A DNA stretch of 64,000 nt from Myxococcota bacterium (GTDB lineage: Bacteria; Myxococcota_A; UBA796; UBA2385): positions 128,001 to 192,000 of the forward strand of contig JBIJDH010000008.1 of assembly GCA_044344255.1 (NCBI GenBank). Direction: 5' to 3'. The notes beneath the pieces were generated by a model. The model made no database searches. It was not told the DNA's origin and was given only the letters and a program-made list of their open reading frames with translations. The position numbers and the translations under genes are program-made. Below, piece by piece: positions 1,914 through 9,483 of this stretch (within the stretch, counting starts at the first letter, position 1; the number at the start of each line of letters is the position of its first letter).

Positions 1914-2594
1914 TCACAGGCCGCCGTTCGCCGGGAGCACCTTGCCGCTGAGGGCCGTGTTGTGGTGGATGAACCACAGCGCGGTCGCCGCGGCCTCCTC
2001 GGCCCTCCCCACGCGCCGCAGCGCCGAGAAGCGGGTGTACTCCGCCGCCTGCGCGGCAGAGACGGCCTGCGCCGCGCCGCCGTCGAGCAGGCCGAGGGCG
2101 ACGCCGTTCACGAGCAGGCCCTGGGGCCCGAGCGCGTGGGCGAGGGCCATCACGGCGGCCGACAGCGCTCCCTGTGCCGCCGCGAGGTGCGGGGCGATGG
2201 GGAAGGACTGCCCGGGGGCGAGGCCGGTGAAGGCGACGAGGTTGCGGGGGCGGCCCGCTGGGCGCTGGGAGAGCGCCGCCGCCGCGTCGATCAGCGCCCC
2301 GGCCTGCACCCGGACCGCGTGGCCGAGGGGGTCGGGCCCCAGGCCGACCGCGGGGGCGGCGGCGCAGTGCACGAGGTCATCGGCCATGAAGCCCGCAGCG
2401 TCGAGGGCGGCGAAGAGGGCGGCGACGGCGCCGGGCAGGGCGAGGTCGCAGCGGAGGGCGAGGCCCGGCAGCGCGGCCGCCACCGCCTCGCCTTGTTGGT
2501 AGGTGAAGGCCACGCGGTCTCCCCCGCGGGCGAGGCCCCGCACCACGGCCTGGCCGACGTGGCCGCTCCCGCCGAGCACCAGCACCCGCCTCAT
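1914..2594 (-). CDS. SDR family oxidoreductase, FabG-like, catalytically degenerate
   Basis: Begins MRRVLVLGGSGHVG. ATG at 2594 overlaps the upstream stop (ATGA). YxxxK is replaced by LAAAQ. C-terminal ANGG. Confidence 0.85.
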   Translation of the reverse strand: MRRVLVLGGSGHVGQAVVRGLARGGDRVAFTYQQGEAVAAALPGLALRCDLALPGAVAALFAALDAAGFMADDLVHCAAAPAVGLGPDPLGHAVRVQAGALIDAAAALSQRPAGRPRNLVAFTGLAPGQSFPIAPHLAAAQGALSAAVMALAHALGPQGLLVNGVALGLLDGGAAQAVSAAQAAEYTRFSALRRVGRAEEAAATALWFIHHNTALSGKVLPANGGL

Positions 2595-3904
2595 CGGCTC
2601 GTCTCCCAGAGCCAGTCGAGCTCGGCGCGGATGTCGGTCACGACGGCCTCCAGCGTCTCCATCGGGATGTTGTATCGAGGCTGCATGCGAAAGACCGACC
2701 AGTCGTGGCCGCAGGTGAAGAAGAACCAGCCCCGCCGATAGAGCCGGTGACAGAGCAGGGGAGAGACCGTGGCCCGCTCGGCGAGGCCGTGAAAGCCGAA
2801 GTGCTCGAAGGACAGCCAGGGGTGGTCGAGGGGCCGCAGCTTGAGGCCGAGCATCAGGCCCTCGCCGCGCAGCTCCTCGACGAGCGGGTGCCCGCCCACC
2901 GCGGCCTCCAGCCAGCCCCGAAAGCGGGCGCCCCGCTCGCGGACGCCCTCCAGCACCGCCTCGTCGATGAGGTTGAGGGCGGCGATGCCGGCCACCATCG
3001 AGAGCGCGTTGTAGCTGAAGGTGATGTTGTGGCTCTCGCCGTCCTCGAAGTCCATCCCATAGGCCCGATTGAACCAGGCGGCGGAGGTGAGCATCGCCGA
3101 GGTGGCGACGAGGCCGCCGCCGAGCTGCTTGGCGAGGAGGACGGCGTCGGGCCGGCGGGGCCAGCGCTCGCTCCGGGTGAAGGTGCCGGTGCGGCCGAGG
3201 CCGGTCTGCACCTCGTCGGCGACGAACAGCACGTCCTGCTCGCGGGTGAGCCGGCCGGCGGCCTCGACCCACTCCGGGGGCAGCACCCGCACGCCCCCCT
3301 CCCCTTGGATGGGCTCGACGATCAGCGCCGCGACGTCACCCTCGGCGAAGGCCCGCTCCAGGGCAGGGACGTCACCCCAGGGCAGCGACTCGGCGTGGGC
3401 GAGCATCGGGCCGAAGGGGTCGGAGAAGGGCCCCTTGGCCATCAGCGCGGTGCTGCCGACGCCGCAGCCATGGTAGGCGCCCTCGAGGCCGAGGATGCGC
3501 CTCCGCCCCGTGGCGGCGCGGGCGAGCTTGATCGAGGCCTCCACGGCGTCGCTGCCCGAGGCGCCGAACCAGCTCCGGTCGTAGCCCGTGCGCTCGAACA
3601 GGAGCCGCCCGAGGCGCCCGGCCCAGGGCGTGACGCGGGCGGGGTACCAGCTCGGCGCGTCGGTCGCGAGGAAGTCAACCACCGCCCGCGTGACCGCGGG
3701 GTGCCGGTGCCCGAGGGCCTGGGTGCCATGAAGGTCCTCGAACTCGCGGCCATCCACGTCGACGAGGCGGCCCTCGTGGGTGCTCACCACCTGCCAGGGC
3801 TCCCCGGCGAGGCGGGCCCGCTGGCCGAGCAGGGGATTGACGAATTGCATGTATTCGTCGAAGCCCCGCTGTTGGACCTCGGTGATCGTCGGCGGCGGTC
3901 GCAT
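2591..3904 (-). CDS. Class III PLP-dependent aminotransferase
   Basis: SGSDAVE, YHG, IVEPIQGEGG, DEVQTGLGRTG, AKQLGGG (PLP lysine). TGATG overlap with the upstream gene. Confidence 0.92.
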   Translation of the reverse strand: MRPPPTITEVQQRGFDEYMQFVNPLLGQRARLAGEPWQVVSTHEGRLVDVDGREFEDLHGTQALGHRHPAVTRAVVDFLATDAPSWYPARVTPWAGRLGRLLFERTGYDRSWFGASGSDAVEASIKLARAATGRRRILGLEGAYHGCGVGSTALMAKGPFSDPFGPMLAHAESLPWGDVPALERAFAEGDVAALIVEPIQGEGGVRVLPPEWVEAAGRLTREQDVLFVADEVQTGLGRTGTFTRSERWPRRPDAVLLAKQLGGGLVATSAMLTSAAWFNRAYGMDFEDGESHNITFSYNALSMVAGIAALNLIDEAVLEGVRERGARFRGWLEAAVGGHPLVEELRGEGLMLGLKLRPLDHPWLSFEHFGFHGLAERATVSPLLCHRLYRRGWFFFTCGHDWSVFRMQPRYNIPMETLEAVVTDIRAELDWLWETSR

Positions 3905-4668
3905 CAAATCCCCCCGTCCGCCGCGATGCGCGCGCCGGTGATATGTCGGTTCTGTCCAGAGGCCAGCCAGACGACGAGCGCCGCCACCTCGGCGGGCTGG
4001 ATCAAGCGGCCGAGCGGGCTCTGGGCGAGGTACTCGTCGAGCCGGTGCTGCGGCAGGCTGCGGGACTGACCCGCCTCCAAGAGCCCCGGGGCCAGCAGGT
4101 TGACCTGGATCCCGTAGCGCCCCACCTCGCGGGCGAGGGCCTCCGTCATCCCGCGCAGCGCCGCCTTGGAGGCCGCATAATGCACCGGGGCCTCCACCAC
4201 CCTCCCCTCGGAGAAGGCGCCGATCGACAGGATGTGGCCGCCCTTGGCCCGGATCATCGGCCGCAGGACCGCGCGGGAGAACAGGAAGGCCCCCTTCGCG
4301 TTGACGTTCATCACCGCGTCCCAGTCCTCGGCCTCGATGAGGGCCACCGGCAACACCTGGTTGATGCCGGCGTTGTTCACGAGCAGGTCAATCCCGCCCC
4401 ACTCGGCCACGAGGGCGCTCACGGTGGCGCTCACGTGGGCGGGGTCGGCCACGGAGCCACGAAAGGCGCGGGCCTCGGGGCCAAGCTCGCCGAGGAGCTC
4501 GACGGCGTCGGCCTCGGCACGGAGGTAGGTGAAGGCCACGCGGGCGCCCGCCGCCCGGAGCGCCGTGCAGATCGCCCGCCCGAGGCCCCGGGAGCCCCCG
4601 GTCACGAGGCAGCGCCGGCCCGCGAGCGGCGACTCCATCGGCGGCGAGGCCGGCCCGTCCGCGCTCAT
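3904..4668 (-). CDS. 3-oxoacyl-ACP reductase-like SDR
   Basis: TGGSRGLG, NNAG, YAASK, ADGG motifs. Confidence 0.92.
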   Translation of the reverse strand: MSADGPASPPMESPLAGRRCLVTGGSRGLGRAICTALRAAGARVAFTYLRAEADAVELLGELGPEARAFRGSVADPAHVSATVSALVAEWGGIDLLVNNAGINQVLPVALIEAEDWDAVMNVNAKGAFLFSRAVLRPMIRAKGGHILSIGAFSEGRVVEAPVHYAASKAALRGMTEALAREVGRYGIQVNLLAPGLLEAGQSRSLPQHRLDEYLAQSPLGRLIQPAEVAALVVWLASGQNRHITGARIAADGGI

Positions 4669-6146
4669 CGGCCCTCCCCGGCGTCGAGCTCGACCGCGCC
4701 GAGGTCAAAGCGGCCCCCGGCGCGCGGGCCCCAGCTCCGCGGCGCGCTCATGAAATTCGCCTCCTTCTCTCGATAGAGCACGTTGTAGGCACAGACGGGG
4801 ATCGTAGATCCGTCTGGGTAACAATTGGCGTCACAGCAGGCCGCGAGGCGCTCGGTGTCGAAGGTCTCTTCGTCCATGTGCGCGTGTACATAGATCGCCT
4901 TGATCCAGCGCTCCGAGGCGCGAAGGCTCTGCTCGGGGTCGAGGCTGCGGTCGCTCGGGAAGGCCTCGCGCAGGAGCCCCTTCAGCAGGCGGAGGATGCG
5001 CGCGGCGTCGGGAGGGTCCTCCGCCCACAGACGGTCAATCGCCTCTCGAAGGGCGGCCTCGAGGCGCGGGGTGGGCTCCATGTAGAGGGTCTCCGACAGG
5101 GAGAGGTACATCGTCATCGGATCGAGGAAGCGCGTGAAGGGGATGGGCGGCCCGCCCTCGGGATCGACGAGCAGATAGGCCACCTGGTAGCAGAGCGGGT
5201 GCGCGCGGGGAGAGGGCACGAAGTCATCGACGCCGATCCAGCCCGTCTGTGCGGCGATGCGCTCCAGCACCTCGTAGAGCGAGATGCGGCCCCCGCGGTC
5301 AAAGGTCGCGCCGCCCTGTCCGGTGTAGGTCATCGCGTGCACCTCGACGTGCCGCACGCAGGCGCGGGCCATCGCGAAGTCGAGGATGCGCCCGATCTCG
5401 TGGTCATTGTACCCGCGCGTGACGACCGGGATGAGCGTGACGTCGACGCCGTACCGCTCGAGGTTGTCGAGGCAGCGCAGCTTGGCCGGCAGGAGCGAGA
5501 CCCCCTGCATCAAGACGTCGGTGGCGGCGTCAAAGGTGTCAAAGGACAGGGCGACGCGGGCCCCGAGGCCCTGGAGCCGCGCTACCAGCGCCTCATCGCG
5601 GAGCTTCAAGCCGTTCGAGCAGATGGTGACACGCCGCACCCCCTCCTCCTGGGCGATCGCCAGGAACTCCTCGAAGCGCGGGTGGAGCATCGGCTCGCCG
5701 CCCGTGAGGTTCAAGAGGTCGAGCGTGCCGCCCCGACGGGCCTTGACGTGCCGCAGCACCGCCCGAAAGTCCTCCAGGGGCATGTGATAGGCGGCGTCGT
5801 TCTTGTTGTGGACGTAGCAGATCGGGCAGTCGAGGTTGCAGGCGCTCGTGATGGTGACCACGGGCATCGCCACCGGCACCTGGTGCTGCTCGCAGGGCCC
5901 GCAGTCAAAGGGGCAGCCGAGGTCAACCGCCCGCCGAAGCTCGCGGAGCGCCGGCACCGCCGGCCTCCAGGCCCGCGTGCGCTCGTACCAGTCCACCGAC
6001 GTGCCGATGGCGATGTCTTGCGCCCCGTGGGCGGGGCAGCGCTTGAGCAGCCAGACCGCGCCCTCCCGGGCCACCACCCGCGCGGGCAGGCCCTCCTTGC
6101 AGACGCGGCAGAGGCTGGAGGTGAGGTGGAGGAGGCGGTCGGTCAT
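4665..6146 (-). CDS. Radical SAM enzyme, Tes/GDGT-MAS (MJ0619)-like family
   Basis: SLCRVC..KRCPAHG, CPFDCGPCEQH, CNLDCPIC, GGEP, HPLC and CC..PDGSTIPVCAYN. Start placed at MTDRLL. Confidence 0.88.
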   Translation of the reverse strand: MTDRLLHLTSSLCRVCKEGLPARVVAREGAVWLLKRCPAHGAQDIAIGTSVDWYERTRAWRPAVPALRELRRAVDLGCPFDCGPCEQHQVPVAMPVVTITSACNLDCPICYVHNKNDAAYHMPLEDFRAVLRHVKARRGGTLDLLNLTGGEPMLHPRFEEFLAIAQEEGVRRVTICSNGLKLRDEALVARLQGLGARVALSFDTFDAATDVLMQGVSLLPAKLRCLDNLERYGVDVTLIPVVTRGYNDHEIGRILDFAMARACVRHVEVHAMTYTGQGGATFDRGGRISLYEVLERIAAQTGWIGVDDFVPSPRAHPLCYQVAYLLVDPEGGPPIPFTRFLDPMTMYLSLSETLYMEPTPRLEAALREAIDRLWAEDPPDAARILRLLKGLLREAFPSDRSLDPEQSLRASERWIKAIYVHAHMDEETFDTERLAACCDANCYPDGSTIPVCAYNVLYREKEANFMSAPRSWGPRAGGRFDLGAVELDAGEGR

Positions 6147-6238: not shown

Positions 6239-6364
6239 GAGCTGCACGTCGAAGATGAGGGGCAGGGACTCGATCCCGGCCTCGTCGCCCGGGTCTTCGA
6301 GCCCGGGGTGACGACCAAGGCGCGGGGCAGCGGCCTCCGTCTGCCCGCCGCCGTGCCCGCATGA
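6239..6364 (+). pseudogene. Sensor histidine kinase HATPase_c remnant
   Basis: Translates ELHVEDEGQGLDPGLVARVFEPGVTTKARGSGLRLPAAVPA* (G1, F and partial G2 boxes). Stop overlaps the regulator ATG. Confidence 0.75.
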
Positions 6365-7566
6365 AGGCGCGCGTGCTGGTGGTCGATGACGACCCGGGCC
6401 TCCGCTACACCCTCGTGGAGATCCTCGAGGCCGAGGGCCTGGAGGTCACCGCGGTCGACAGCGGCGAGGCGGCGCTGCTCGCCCTGCGGTCGGGGGCCTA
6501 CTCGCTCGTCATCACCGACCTCCGGATGCCCGGCCTCGACGGCATGGGCCTGCTCGCCGCCCTCCGCCGCGAGCCGCGCCCGCCGCGGGTGGTGATGATC
6601 ACCGCCCACGGCTCGGAGCGCACCGCCGTGGAGGCGATGAAGGCCGGCGCCTGGGACTACCTGCGCAAGCCCTTCGAGGTCGAGGAGCTCTTGCGGGTGG
6701 TGGAGCGCGCCGTCGAGACGCTCCGCCTCGCCGCCGAGAACGAGCGCCTCTCCGGCGAGCGCATCCTGTCGCGGACCATGGTCTTCGCCTCCCCACGCGC
6801 CGAGCGGCCCTACGTCCGCTTCAACTGCGCCGCGATCAGCCCCGACCTCGCCGAGGCCGAGCTCTTCGGGCACAGCAAGGGGGCCTTCACCGGCGCCGCC
6901 CGGGCGCGGCCCGGCCTCTTCGGAGAGGCCGACGGCGGCACCCTCCTGCTCGACGAGGTGGGCGAGCTCGACCTCTCCACCCAGGCCCGCCTGCTGCGCG
7001 CCCTCCAGGAGGGGGAGATCCGCGCGGTCGGCGAAGAGCGGCCGCGAAAGGTCAACGTGCGCATCCTCGCCGCCACCCACCGCGATCTGCGCGAGCAGGA
7101 GAGCCAGGGCCGCTTCCGCGAGGACCTCTTCTATCGCCTCAACGTCGTCAACCTCCGCGTGCCCGCCCTCCGCGAGCGCCCCGAGGACGTGCCCGTGCTG
7201 GTGCGCCACTTCCTCGACCGCTTCGCGGAGCGCTTCGGCACCGGCCCCATCCGCCTCGAGCCCGCCGTGCTCGACCGCCTCCTCGCCTGGGGCTGGCCCG
7301 GCAACGTGCGCGAGCTCATCAACACGATGGAGAGCCTCGTCGCCTTGTCGGTCGACGGCGTCATCGACCCCGCCCTCCTCCCCGGGGAGGGAGAGGCGGC
7401 GCTCCCCGCCCTCGGCCTCCGCGAGCGGGTGGACGCCTACGAGCGCGGCCTCATCGTCGAGGCGCTGCGCGCCGCCGGCGGCAACCAGTCCGAAGCGGCC
7501 CGGCGCCTCGGGCTGCCCCGGGTGACCCTCCACGACAAGCTGCGGCGGTACGGCCTCGAGGGCTGA
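6361..7566 (+). CDS. NtrC-like sigma-54 response regulator with internal deletion of the Walker A region (possible pseudogene)
   Basis: Receiver domain, GAFTGA, LLLDEVG, DLFYRL, WPGNVREL and HTH are present. GESGTGKE is absent. Confidence 0.85.
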   Translation: MKARVLVVDDDPGLRYTLVEILEAEGLEVTAVDSGEAALLALRSGAYSLVITDLRMPGLDGMGLLAALRREPRPPRVVMITAHGSERTAVEAMKAGAWDYLRKPFEVEELLRVVERAVETLRLAAENERLSGERILSRTMVFASPRAERPYVRFNCAAISPDLAEAELFGHSKGAFTGAARARPGLFGEADGGTLLLDEVGELDLSTQARLLRALQEGEIRAVGEERPRKVNVRILAATHRDLREQESQGRFREDLFYRLNVVNLRVPALRERPEDVPVLVRHFLDRFAERFGTGPIRLEPAVLDRLLAWGWPGNVRELINTMESLVALSVDGVIDPALLPGEGEAALPALGLRERVDAYERGLIVEALRAAGGNQSEAARRLGLPRVTLHDKLRRYGLEG

Positions 7567-7818
7567 GCCAGCGCGGGCGCCCGGGGCGCGCCGGCCGCCG
7601 ACCCGGACCTCGGTGGGGACCGAGAACCTGCAGGCAGTCCATCCACGACGCCGACTTTCACCGCCGAATTGCCGACCAAGGCGGGTGAGCAGTTCCCATG
7701 TCTGGTCCCGGCAACGGTGGCGCAGGGGCCCGTCGTCTGCGCCTGCCGAGCACCCGTGATAAGCTCCGAACATCGCGCGGAGTTGGCCCTGGACAGATGC
7801 ATTCGGTGGGGTGTTTCC

Positions 7819-9483
7819 TTGAAGTGGTTGTTCTGCGGAGCCCTCCTTCCGGCCATCGCCTGCGGGTCCGGTTCCAAAGGCGGGTCATCTCCTGGCTCCG
7901 ACGACGGTGCCCCCACCGATGACACCGCCGGTAGTGGCGCTCCCGTCACCGACACCAGCACCACGGTCGGAGATACCGCAGACGGCGACACCGCGGTTGA
8001 TGACACCGACTCGGGTGGTGGTGCTGATGGAGGAGACACCGGTTCGGGCTACCCTTCCTACACCATCGTCCCCCTCGACGAGGGAGACTACACGACGCTT
8101 ACGCCATCGACCGAAATGATCGGTGGGTGGTCCCTCGGGGAGAGTCTGGCCCTCACCAGCGACCTCTGGGGAGACGGCCGTCCGGAGGTGGTCAGCAGCG
8201 CCTTCTACGACGACGGATACGGGGATGCGATCTCCACCACCTACGTCTTCGACAGCGAGTTCTTCTCGTCCGGCCCGAAGGACGGCGTTGCGAACGACGA
8301 GGCGCGGATGCAGATCGACACCGTGAACGGCGGCGCCAACTCGTACCCGGGGGTCATCGGCGACCTTGATGGGGATGGGCTCGACGAGCTGGCGCTGGAA
8401 GCGGATGGTTGGGGGGCCGCCTCTGTCCTCATCCGTGGTGACCACCTCGCCACCCTCAGCGGGCTCATCGAGAGGGAGGATCTTGACCGCGATGCGGACA
8501 TGACCTTCACGGGCTGTCCCGGTGGCTTCGCCCGCGTGTGGCACTCGGGCCACCTTTCTGACCCCGCCGGCCTACAAGCCGACATCGTGGTCGACTGCTG
8601 GGGCGACATCGTCGTGCTCCATGGGTCAGACCTTTATGATGGTGAGAATAGGATTGGCGACGAAGGACAGGCGCGGATCTACAACACAGACACATGGGGC
8701 GGATCGCCCGTGGTGGAGGGAGATCGCCTCTACGAGCCCACGATTCTCGGAGACCTGGATGGCGACGGACTATACGAGCTTGCGATCCCGATGTGGTCCA
8801 AGTCCGAACCCTACAACTACATATTCTACGGGGACTCCCTCAACTTTGAAGCCCCGACTTCTACCACGGACGCCGACATCGTTTTCAAGACTCCGGATGC
8901 GGTGTCGTGGGGGGACCACGCGACTTTCTATTTTCAACCTACTCCACTCTCTGACGTCAACGGAGACGGCGTCGCGGACGTGCTCTGGAGCTCAGGCTAC
9001 GCCCAGGCAGACGACCGCGAAGACGTCGGCATCGCTTGGCTCTGGTCCGGCGCTCGCCTCGCTTCGCCAATGGTCGGTGAGGTGGGGGATGCGGACGTGA
9101 CATTCACCGCCGACTTGCCCTACTCCTACGTCGGAGACTCGGCGGCCGACGCAGGCGATGTCGACGGCGACAGCCTCAGCGACCTGCTCATCCACTCGTC
9201 CGGATATGACGCGGAAGACGCGATCAACCTCCAGCCCTGCGCACACCTTGTCCTTGGTGCGAAGCTCATCGGGGGTGGCAGCTACAACCTCGACCAGGCC
9301 GGGATAGGCTTCGTGCCCCAGGATGATGGGTATCGAAATCTTGGCCCGGGGGCTGGAGAGTACGCCGGAGGACAGGACCTCGATGGGGACGGGGTCGGCG
9401 ACCTCCTGATCGGGAACTCCGACTGGACTGGGCTGGACTACGGACGCATCTGGATGATCCCCGGCGGCACCCTCCCGCTCTGA
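7819..9483 (+). CDS. FG-GAP/integrin-alpha repeat lipoprotein
   Basis: Lipobox-like AIAC, acidic D/T/G linker, repeated GDLDGDGxxEL/DVNGDG motifs. TTG start inferred. Less extreme GC3 than its neighbours. Confidence 0.85.
   Translation: MKWLFCGALLPAIACGSGSKGGSSPGSDDGAPTDDTAGSGAPVTDTSTTVGDTADGDTAVDDTDSGGGADGGDTGSGYPSYTIVPLDEGDYTTLTPSTEMIGGWSLGESLALTSDLWGDGRPEVVSSAFYDDGYGDAISTTYVFDSEFFSSGPKDGVANDEARMQIDTVNGGANSYPGVIGDLDGDGLDELALEADGWGAASVLIRGDHLATLSGLIEREDLDRDADMTFTGCPGGFARVWHSGHLSDPAGLQADIVVDCWGDIVVLHGSDLYDGENRIGDEGQARIYNTDTWGGSPVVEGDRLYEPTILGDLDGDGLYELAIPMWSKSEPYNYIFYGDSLNFEAPTSTTDADIVFKTPDAVSWGDHATFYFQPTPLSDVNGDGVADVLWSSGYAQADDREDVGIAWLWSGARLASPMVGEVGDADVTFTADLPYSYVGDSAADAGDVDGDSLSDLLIHSSGYDAEDAINLQPCAHLVLGAKLIGGGSYNLDQAGIGFVPQDDGYRNLGPGAGEYAGGQDLDGDGVGDLLIGNSDWTGLDYGRIWMIPGGTLPL

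Follow-up and report, generated by a model that had tools for sequence, protein, structure and literature searches.

A portable four-gene module with a tetraether-synthase-like radical SAM enzyme, predicted to tailor the product of a ketosynthase/ACP pathway in Myxococcota

The stretch of DNA analyzed here, referred to as the window, comprises 64,000 nucleotides of contig JBIJDH010000008.1 from a Myxococcota bacterium, and contains a module of four genes which code for an enzyme of the radical S-adenosylmethionine (SAM) type, designated A, that resembles the archaeal tetraether synthase GDGT-MAS/Tes, for two proteins of the short-chain dehydrogenase/reductase (SDR) fold and for a class III pyridoxal phosphate (PLP)-dependent aminotransferase. 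The reading that we favor, by a narrow balance of probability, is that these genes form a conserved and portable tailoring unit, whereby the acyl product of a separately encoded core cluster would be converted into an aminated lipid-like metabolite, cross-linked or cyclized by radical chemistry. The parts of this prediction differ in strength: the module very probably belongs to a pathway based on a ketosynthase (KS) and an acyl carrier protein (ACP), it would probably install an amine, and that enzyme A makes a carbon-carbon bond is held with a confidence only somewhat above even.

Conservation of the four-gene module

The module in the window consists of four intact open reading frames (ORFs) on the minus strand, joined by junctions of the sequence ATGA (4668), TGATG (3904) and ATGA (2594), just as a first-pass annotation made from the letters alone had described them. 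Partner genes were counted by tblastn in 80 related genome loci, 63 of which offered at least 1.6 kb upstream and at least 3.2 kb downstream; among these 63, SDR1 is present in 62 loci, the pseudo-SDR (SDR2) likewise in 62, and the aminotransferase in 60. The complete set of three occurs in 60, and the gene order of the window is retained in 54. The gene set is not a chance association, and the earlier expectation that it would be conserved together was borne out. The named relatives are mostly Myxococcota, and cultured carriers include Sorangium cellulosum So ce26, other complete Sorangium genomes and Polyangium fumosum DSM 14668. The survey of gene neighborhoods that had been proposed for ACP and KS genes also gave a positive result: within the fetched flank of the 80 loci, 39 have an ACP near the module, 31 have a KS, and in 37 there is a further Tes-like gene. 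Genes for ABC-2 exporters adjoin the module in many loci.

The core cluster on contig C52

No ACP or KS gene lies adjacent to the module, as had been remarked at the outset, and none was matched on the module contig among the best three tblastn matches per query, yet both are present in the same genome on contig C52 (Table 1). The host genome comprises 8.18 Mb with 71% GC, and the module occupies 130-134 kb of a 277-kb contig, so that it is truly unlinked from the C52 core. The two Tes-like proteins of this core are 47% and 35% identical to A. Both of its KSs keep the Cys-His-His residues, their partners, which resemble chain-length factors (CLFs), lack the Cys, and the ACP (144 aa) has an insert of about 55 residues as well as the active Ser. 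The core further codes for a nitroreductase-fold protein, a second PigE-like aminotransferase, a SPASM radical SAM protein, three SDR-fold genes and two membrane proteins, and it includes a second SDR1-like gene and a pseudo-SDR.

With its KS, Cys-less CLF, dehydratase and active-Ser ACP, the core has the composition of a highly reducing type II polyketide synthase (PKS), of which the aryl-polyene, ishigamide and "ladderane"-type clusters are known examples. It resembles these systems in its KS/CLF pairs, FabZ-like dehydratase, dedicated ACP and, in most relatives, FabG-type ketoreductase (KR), but differs from them in the ACP insert, the nitroreductase-fold gene, the two to three Tes-like enzymes, the SDR/pseudo-SDR pairs and the aminotransferases. 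The best match in the host genome to the core KR of the relatives (45%) is located on contig C36, and might substitute for it. The same contig carries, at 29.0-31.6 kb (L162:7033-9630), a second set of KS, CLF-like and long-ACP genes, with an ACP 45% identical to the core type; no Tes-like gene was found near this set in the 18 kb fetched. The membrane proteins of the core (L125:14651-15238 and L089:12486-13616, both on the minus strand) are conserved and matched no Pfam or ESM Atlas family, and the larger one has several His-containing motifs; they are candidates for release or oxidation steps. In a single genome, CLF1 and KS2 are fused into one ORF (L067:4654-7071, plus strand). Assignment of the long ACP and FabZ to the anammox type was rejected, since no such ACP structure was matched and FabZ was closest to canonical FabZ, as was a cispentacin cassette, for which only weak AmcE and AmcF matches were obtained.

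Co-occurrence and portability

The core exists in two versions, the first with two KS/CLF pairs and the Tes-like paralogs B and C, and the second with one pair and paralogs E and D. Separation of the module from the core is common and extends to complete Sorangium genomes, in which some 25-80 kb separate the module from a core of the second version. Of 28 genomes selected for a module locus in which neither ACP nor KS was seen, 27 contain three or more Tes-like paralogs, and the long core ACP was matched at E<1e-30 in 25; one further genome (G050) has a weaker match, situated within a KS/Tes cluster. In a sample of 400 genomes of the phylum, for which the best three candidates were scored per genome and paralog counts are thus lower bounds, A was found in four, each with at least two more paralogs, the pair without A in five and a single match in four. 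An ortholog of the aminotransferase (at least 56%) is present in all four genomes with A, while of the five pair-only genomes three lack an aminotransferase match, one has a 38% paralog and one, which is fragmented, a 49% match. A was detected in none of 40 relatives from the family and order.

A survey of metagenomes, in which 56 of 80 loci were analyzed and 24 weak or partial matches were left out, revealed a sister clade with the same core and without the module, in which a KS occurs in 12 of the 18 loci that measure 7 kb or more (L166-L192, with L190 excluded as a locus of the second core version). In the phylum to which G050 belongs (L027, Planctomycetota), the profile of this clade matches 10 of 301 genomes, and one member of the clade is named Ca. 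Electrothrix. These results indicate that the core is widespread and that the module is an add-on. Plasmids yielded only three distant matches (28-33%), of which the one inspected has an unrelated context. Between genomes with the first and the second core version, A averages 64% identity, compared to 32% for ACP1/ACP2, 33-39% for the KSs and 44-46% for the core radical enzymes, and the label of the core version changes six times on the tree of A, with at least two of the changes forced by starred branches. Since the module pairs with two very different ACPs, its substrate is probably either a released product or one that does not depend on an ACP.

The radical SAM enzyme and its distance from Tes

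Enzyme A is a member of the MJ0619/GDGT-MAS superfamily (IPR034474), with its rubredoxin site, two auxiliary clusters, radical SAM (RS) motif and four-domain fold, as the first-pass annotation had recognized from five cysteine motifs (SLCxxC..CPxHG, CPxDCGxCxxH, CxxxCxxC, HPxC and CC..PDG.IPxCxYN), all of which are present. The sequence scores 51 bits against PF23545 (cut-off 27), also contains PF04055, and matches the GDGT-MAS structure 7TOL at E 1.5e-54. The AlphaFold2 (AF2) model (pLDDT 92.5) gave Foldseek TM scores of 0.78-0.80 to GDGT-MAS structures and superposed on 7TOM with a VIA Z of 46.2 and a root-mean-square deviation of 2.7 Å over 431 residues at 26% identity, the next entry having a Z of 19.6. 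The rubredoxin spacing C13-X2-C16-X20-C37-X2-H40 equals the C9X2C12X20C33X2H36 of GDGT-MAS, and the likeness extends to the CCCH ligands of the rubredoxin site and the N-terminal auxiliary cluster, the CX3CX2C motif of the RS cluster and the C-terminal Cys ligands, which stand at matching positions. A rubredoxin iron, an N-terminal auxiliary [4Fe-4S], the RS cluster and a C-terminal auxiliary [4Fe-4S] are accordingly the metal sites predicted for A; the ligands of the last would be C319, C437/C438 and C452, and His421 stands where GDGT-MAS has Met439. The ligand columns are invariant in 37 of 37 orthologs, apart from C85, which is kept in 36. Apparent "fusions" of A, of 770 and 700 aa, proved to be extensions by the ORF caller across antisense genes.

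Membership in Tes itself, in contrast to that in the superfamily, did not hold, and the sequence comparisons argue that A is not Tes proper. Its score against the Tes profile NF045702 is 219.4 bits, far below the cut-off of 450, with paralogs B and C at 233 and 267 bits, and its score against the TrsS profile NF045646 is 218 bits (cut-off 490); TrsS forms a separate clade in the tree. For the phylogeny that had been called for, 44 of 150 unnamed representatives were scanned with NCBIfam; the eight of them that exceeded the Tes cut-off and the six that exceeded that of TrsS served as markers. In a quick IQ-TREE analysis of 49 rows the eight Tes representatives form a clade (SH-aLRT 100), and A to E fall outside it, behind several branches with values of 96-99; FastTree on 103 rows likewise places A outside. 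A position beyond the Tes-like clade was among the outcomes that the first-pass annotation had set as refuting its reading; it applies to Tes proper and not to the superfamily. Two residues described as fully conserved across 1000 archaeal homologs in the text available from Lloyd et al. (PMC9433317) are replaced in A, Met439 by His421 in 37 of 37 orthologs and Tyr459 by Asn441 in 36 of 37. The same text reports that the GDGT-MAS variants M439A and Y459F/L remain active in vitro, so that these replacements do not exclude Tes-like chemistry; they lower the case that A is Tes, not that it works like Tes. In addition, His266, Glu268 and His270 of strand beta-6 are invariant in A, where the Tes representatives mostly have G, N or Q, and this may point to a substrate of greater polarity. 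The lid helices are present in the AF2 model, and the lid is about 43% hydrophobic with a net charge of -2, versus 45% and +7 in Tes.

The fold match of A is full-length and includes the helical lid region, and this lends some credit to an alternative that builds on the first-pass annotation, namely that A couples the tails of membrane lipids in the manner of Tes, giving a membrane-spanning amino-lipid of the diabolic-acid or branched-tetraether (brGDGT) kind. One core version adjoins genes for a flippase-like LPG-synthase TM protein, an acyltransferase-3 and a fatty-acid hydroxylase, and such a role was hypothesized for bacterial Tes homologs by Zeng et al. (PMC8941075, in the text available). 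Yet A lies outside the Tes clade, it relies on two further paralogs and on a core with an ACP and KS of its own, its distribution among relatives and within the phylum is patchy, exporter genes stand beside many of its loci, and a tblastn search of the host genome did not find the membrane accessory genes. Moreover, the available text of Sahonero-Canavesi et al. (PMC13159169) assigns the membrane-spanning lipids of bacteria to Mss and finds Tes homologs in few producers. A membrane-spanning product is the less likely reading, and we consider it very improbable.

The aminotransferase and the SDR proteins

The aminotransferase scores 198 bits against PF00202 (cut-off 30.5), as expected of a class III PLP enzyme, and its Lys259 and D-E-x-Q motif are intact; the Lys, Asp (D230), Glu and Gln are retained in 75 of 75 orthologs. 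In NCBIfam it matches PigE best, by the C-terminal half of that profile (NF053554; 254 bits, cut-off 850), and covers only positions 375-727 of 837; it has no N-terminal thioester-reductase domain. The best match in the PDB is 4PPM, which we take to be PigE. Longer relatives are two-domain fusions of the reductase-transaminase type with 32-42% identity, some named 3-acetyloctanal aminotransferase. From these profiles, the protein is best described as a putative stand-alone class III aminotransferase whose lineage is that of PigE and TamH. The PigE, TamH and TabE-TabA routes to fatty amines proceed from acyl thioester through aldehyde to amine, and the module differs from them in that it lacks an acyl-ACP-reductase or aldehyde dehydrogenase (ALDH) domain, in that an SDR/pseudo-SDR pair flanks the aminotransferase, and in its link to Tes-like enzymes. 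In one genome SDR1 and the aminotransferase form a fused ORF (L056:11488-13704, plus strand), which could be a sequence error.

The first-pass annotation had taken both SDRs for ketoacyl reductases, an assignment which fits neither of them well. SDR1 keeps YxxxK, and in this copy the catalytic Ser is Ala, a replacement seen in 3 of 37 orthologs including L001; across these orthologs the Lys, Arg27 and an unusual His163 are invariant, the Tyr is kept by 32, and the Ser by no more than 23. Without the full Ser-Tyr-Lys triad, SDR1 remains below the cut-offs of two FabG profiles (196 against 222 bits and 188 against 298 bits) and is separate from the clade of the canonical FabG-type KR of the core. 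SDR2 does not have the YxxxK of a catalytic classical SDR: its orthologs form their own clade, in which Lys is replaced by Gln in 67 of 67, Tyr by Phe in 56 of 67 and Ser by Ala or Gly in 67 of 67. By its sequence SDR2 is a predicted pseudo-enzyme, likely the non-catalytic subunit of a heteromeric SDR. Both SDR types match well to 5THQ, a structure labelled 3-oxoacyl-ACP reductase and presumably a type II PKS tailoring reductase.

The gene for A is followed by that of its SDR, and paralogs C and D are likewise followed by an SDR of their own. A predicted complex of A with SDR1 scored 0.44, the best of three controls reaching 0.01; 94% or more of the contacts are shared between runs, and the partner pLDDT is at least 89. 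Of 157 solved complexes, 116 came up to the mark for such scores, as did 2 of 215 mismatched pairs, yet at 0.60 or below this holds for only 18 of the 157 solved complexes and for both mismatches. The model thus weakly suggests SDR1 as a predicted NADPH-binding partner of A.

Proposed pathway

In the pathway that we propose, the core would build a chain on its own ACP, which the Tes-like enzymes B and C would remodel. SDR1, together with SDR2 in a structural role, would then supply a carbonyl, either by reductive conversion of a thioester into an aldehyde or by oxidation of an alcohol, and the PigE-type aminotransferase would convert it into an amine. Finally, A would abstract a hydrogen from an unactivated C-H bond by means of the 5'-deoxyadenosyl (5'-dA) radical, the first radical would be parked on the C-terminal [4Fe-4S] as in GDGT-MAS, and a new C-C bond would be closed. 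In the available section 2.1 of PMC13459092, GDGT-MAS is described as holding the radical on its C-terminal cluster, with formation of an S-C intermediate. The module would probably act after release from the ACP. The available text of PMC8341465 describes the reaction of PigE as thioester reduction followed by transamination of the aldehyde. The earlier suggestion that an acyl chain is tailored with an amine is supported by these results, and the presence of a dedicated ACP/KS core on C52 and in the relatives adds to its strength.

The last step could be of another kind within the same pathway, and A may catalyze a desaturation or dehydrogenation, the insertion of sulfur from the His-ligated auxiliary cluster, or a C-N ring closure, in which the new amine would yield an N-heterocycle open to oxidation by the nitroreductase-fold flavoprotein. 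The exchange of the labile Met ligand for His421 and of Tyr459 for Asn441, the new invariant His266/Glu268/His270, and the S-C intermediate that GDGT-MAS itself forms with its C-terminal cluster according to the available part of PMC13459092 are consistent with such chemistry; so are the cyclization of PigE products to N-heterocycles (PMC8341465, in the text available) and the acyclic polyunsaturated compounds which the text at hand of PMC2649909 reports for Desulfotalea, whose fatty acid synthase type II (FAS II) and radical SAM clusters are alike by description. However, His at the Met439 position is common among many non-Tes members of the family, and therefore does not mark a special reaction, and the sole characterized member forms C-C bonds by the same four-domain fold that A retains in full. 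Chemistry other than C-C coupling is thus unlikely, though it deserves to be taken seriously.

Several observations weigh against the tailoring-unit reading as a whole. Relatives are not independent, and the co-occurrence counts are therefore overstated. In one draft genome (G042) A is the sole Tes-like gene and the ACP match lies outside a KS/Tes cluster, in another (G063) the long ACP was not found in the search of the 28 genomes, and G348, an assembly of 960 contigs, has the aminotransferase and SDR1 with no A detected. A gene for a cation/H+ antiporter and an IS-like ORF (that is, resembling an insertion sequence) interrupt the C52 core, where the FabG-type KR ortholog seen in most relatives was not found, nor was it found in G424. 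No thioester reductase or thioesterase was recognized in the cluster, which has no evident release enzyme. The variability of Ser and Tyr in SDR1 makes a classical reduction uncertain, and the invariant polar residues of A, where Tes mostly has G, N or Q, mean that its chemistry may differ from that of Tes.

A bolder version of the tailoring pathway, which we regard as speculative and rather improbable, is that a chain made by a dedicated type II PKS receives one C(sp3)-C(sp3) bond after another from three diverged enzymes of the Tes family, of which two or more are encoded with a dedicated SDR, and so becomes a polycyclic or macrocyclic amino-lipid scaffold of a kind not yet seen. If true, tetraether-synthase chemistry would operate in a natural-product assembly line, and an NADPH-binding SDR would be the subunit of a radical SAM enzyme.

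Genomic surroundings of the module

The features of the window and the core cluster are listed in Table 1.

Table 1. Positions of the module, its neighbors in the window and the core cluster
Feature	Position	Strand	Length	Remarks
Radical SAM enzyme (paralog A)	6146-4665	minus	493 aa	PF23545 and PF04055
SDR1 (SDRa)	4668-3904	minus	254 aa	FabG-like fold
Class III PLP aminotransferase	3904-2591	minus	437 aa	PF00202
SDR2 (predicted pseudo-SDR)	2594-1914	minus	226 aa	YxxxK replaced by LxxxQ
Presumed sensor histidine-kinase ATPase, C-terminal remnant	~6239-6364	plus		Directly upstream of module; rest of kinase gone
Sigma-54 response regulator	6361-7566	plus		44-residue in-frame deletion
FG-GAP repeat protein	7669-9483	plus		
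Secreted-looking protein (end)	122-1204	plus	620 aa (whole)	GTD repeats
Glutathione S-transferase	1271-1888	plus		Convergent with module
Core cluster	C52 ~97.7-120.1 kb (loci L089, L090)			FabZ, KS1, CLF1, KS2, CLF2, ACP, Tes-like pair

Upstream of A lies a fragment which, by its motif, we take to be the tail of a histidine-kinase ATPase domain; its end overlaps the response regulator gene by ATGA, and at the point where the module starts the remainder of the kinase is absent. Compared to paralogs on contigs C23 and C77, the response regulator has lost the first part of its AAA+ domain as far as the Walker A region, and the protein is probably inactive. In the two closest relatives (L001/G041 and G424; 73-77%) the module lies 4-6 kb from paralog B and the core, which suggests that it was relocated in the host lineage.

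The different contig and the kinase and response regulator remains beside the module would also suit the view that the family is real but that the host copy is an orphaned, decaying module which no longer serves the C52 core, as would the change of Ser to Ala in SDR1 and a core that has insertions and lacks a KR. Against this stand the four intact ORFs with their overlapping junctions and the retention of all ligands and of the PLP Lys; Ala at the Ser position recurs in orthologs, L001 among them, and detachment from the core is common. Decay of the host copy is accordingly highly doubtful, and a functional tailoring module remains the preferred reading.

The FG-GAP repeat gene has a GC3 (GC content at third codon positions) of 0.77, versus 0.92-0.98 in its neighbors, and was possibly acquired recently. 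On the other side of the module, the secreted-looking protein ends in a Cys/hydrophobic/basic C-terminal tail, presumably of the MYXO-CTERM kind, and the glutathione S-transferase is an ordinary one which is not a recurring neighbor. A scan for promoters and terminators gave no signal above chance. An RNA run with 6% of the sampled words has two 151-base contigs listed on the radical SAM gene, which weighs neither way.

Relation to known systems

The known system closest to A is GDGT-MAS/Tes (MJ0619; 7TOL, 7TOM; NF045702), from which A differs in being one of three paralogs tied to a dedicated ACP/KS, SDRs and an aminotransferase, and in its separate clade. For the amine branch, a discrete ACP/reductase/transaminase route is described for Streptomyces in the text available (10.1101/2025.08.11.669332). 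By description, the anammox and Desulfotalea clusters resemble the present system in their extended FAS II operons, non-catalytic FabF paralogs and radical SAM genes, but the genes described for them are of the phytoene-dehydrogenase-like, B12 radical SAM and methyltransferase types, and the word "aminotransferase" is absent from the available text of PMC2649909.

No description of the cluster was found in searches of full-text literature, which covered main texts and among them few subscription papers, and the term "radical SAM" is absent from the Myxococcota papers PMC13213394, PMC12766979 and PMC13445942. The proteins may be included as unannotated nodes in the network of Supplementary Fig. 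5 of Lloyd et al. and in Supplementary Fig. 4 of Zeng et al. The parts are of known kinds, yet their combination, the three-paralog rule and the portable amine module appear to be undescribed.

Implications

The role of bacterial Tes homologs is an acknowledged open question in the texts available (PMC9433317, PMC8941075, PMC11868695), and such homologs serve to infer the producers of brGDGTs. Since the clade of A is tied to a dedicated ACP/KS pathway, the counting of such matches as synthases of membrane-spanning lipids may mislead. The module offers a tractable test, with cultured carriers and natural variants with and without it. If the coupling of carbons by A is true, its family would provide new biocatalysts that join unactivated carbons, and probably a new class of natural products.

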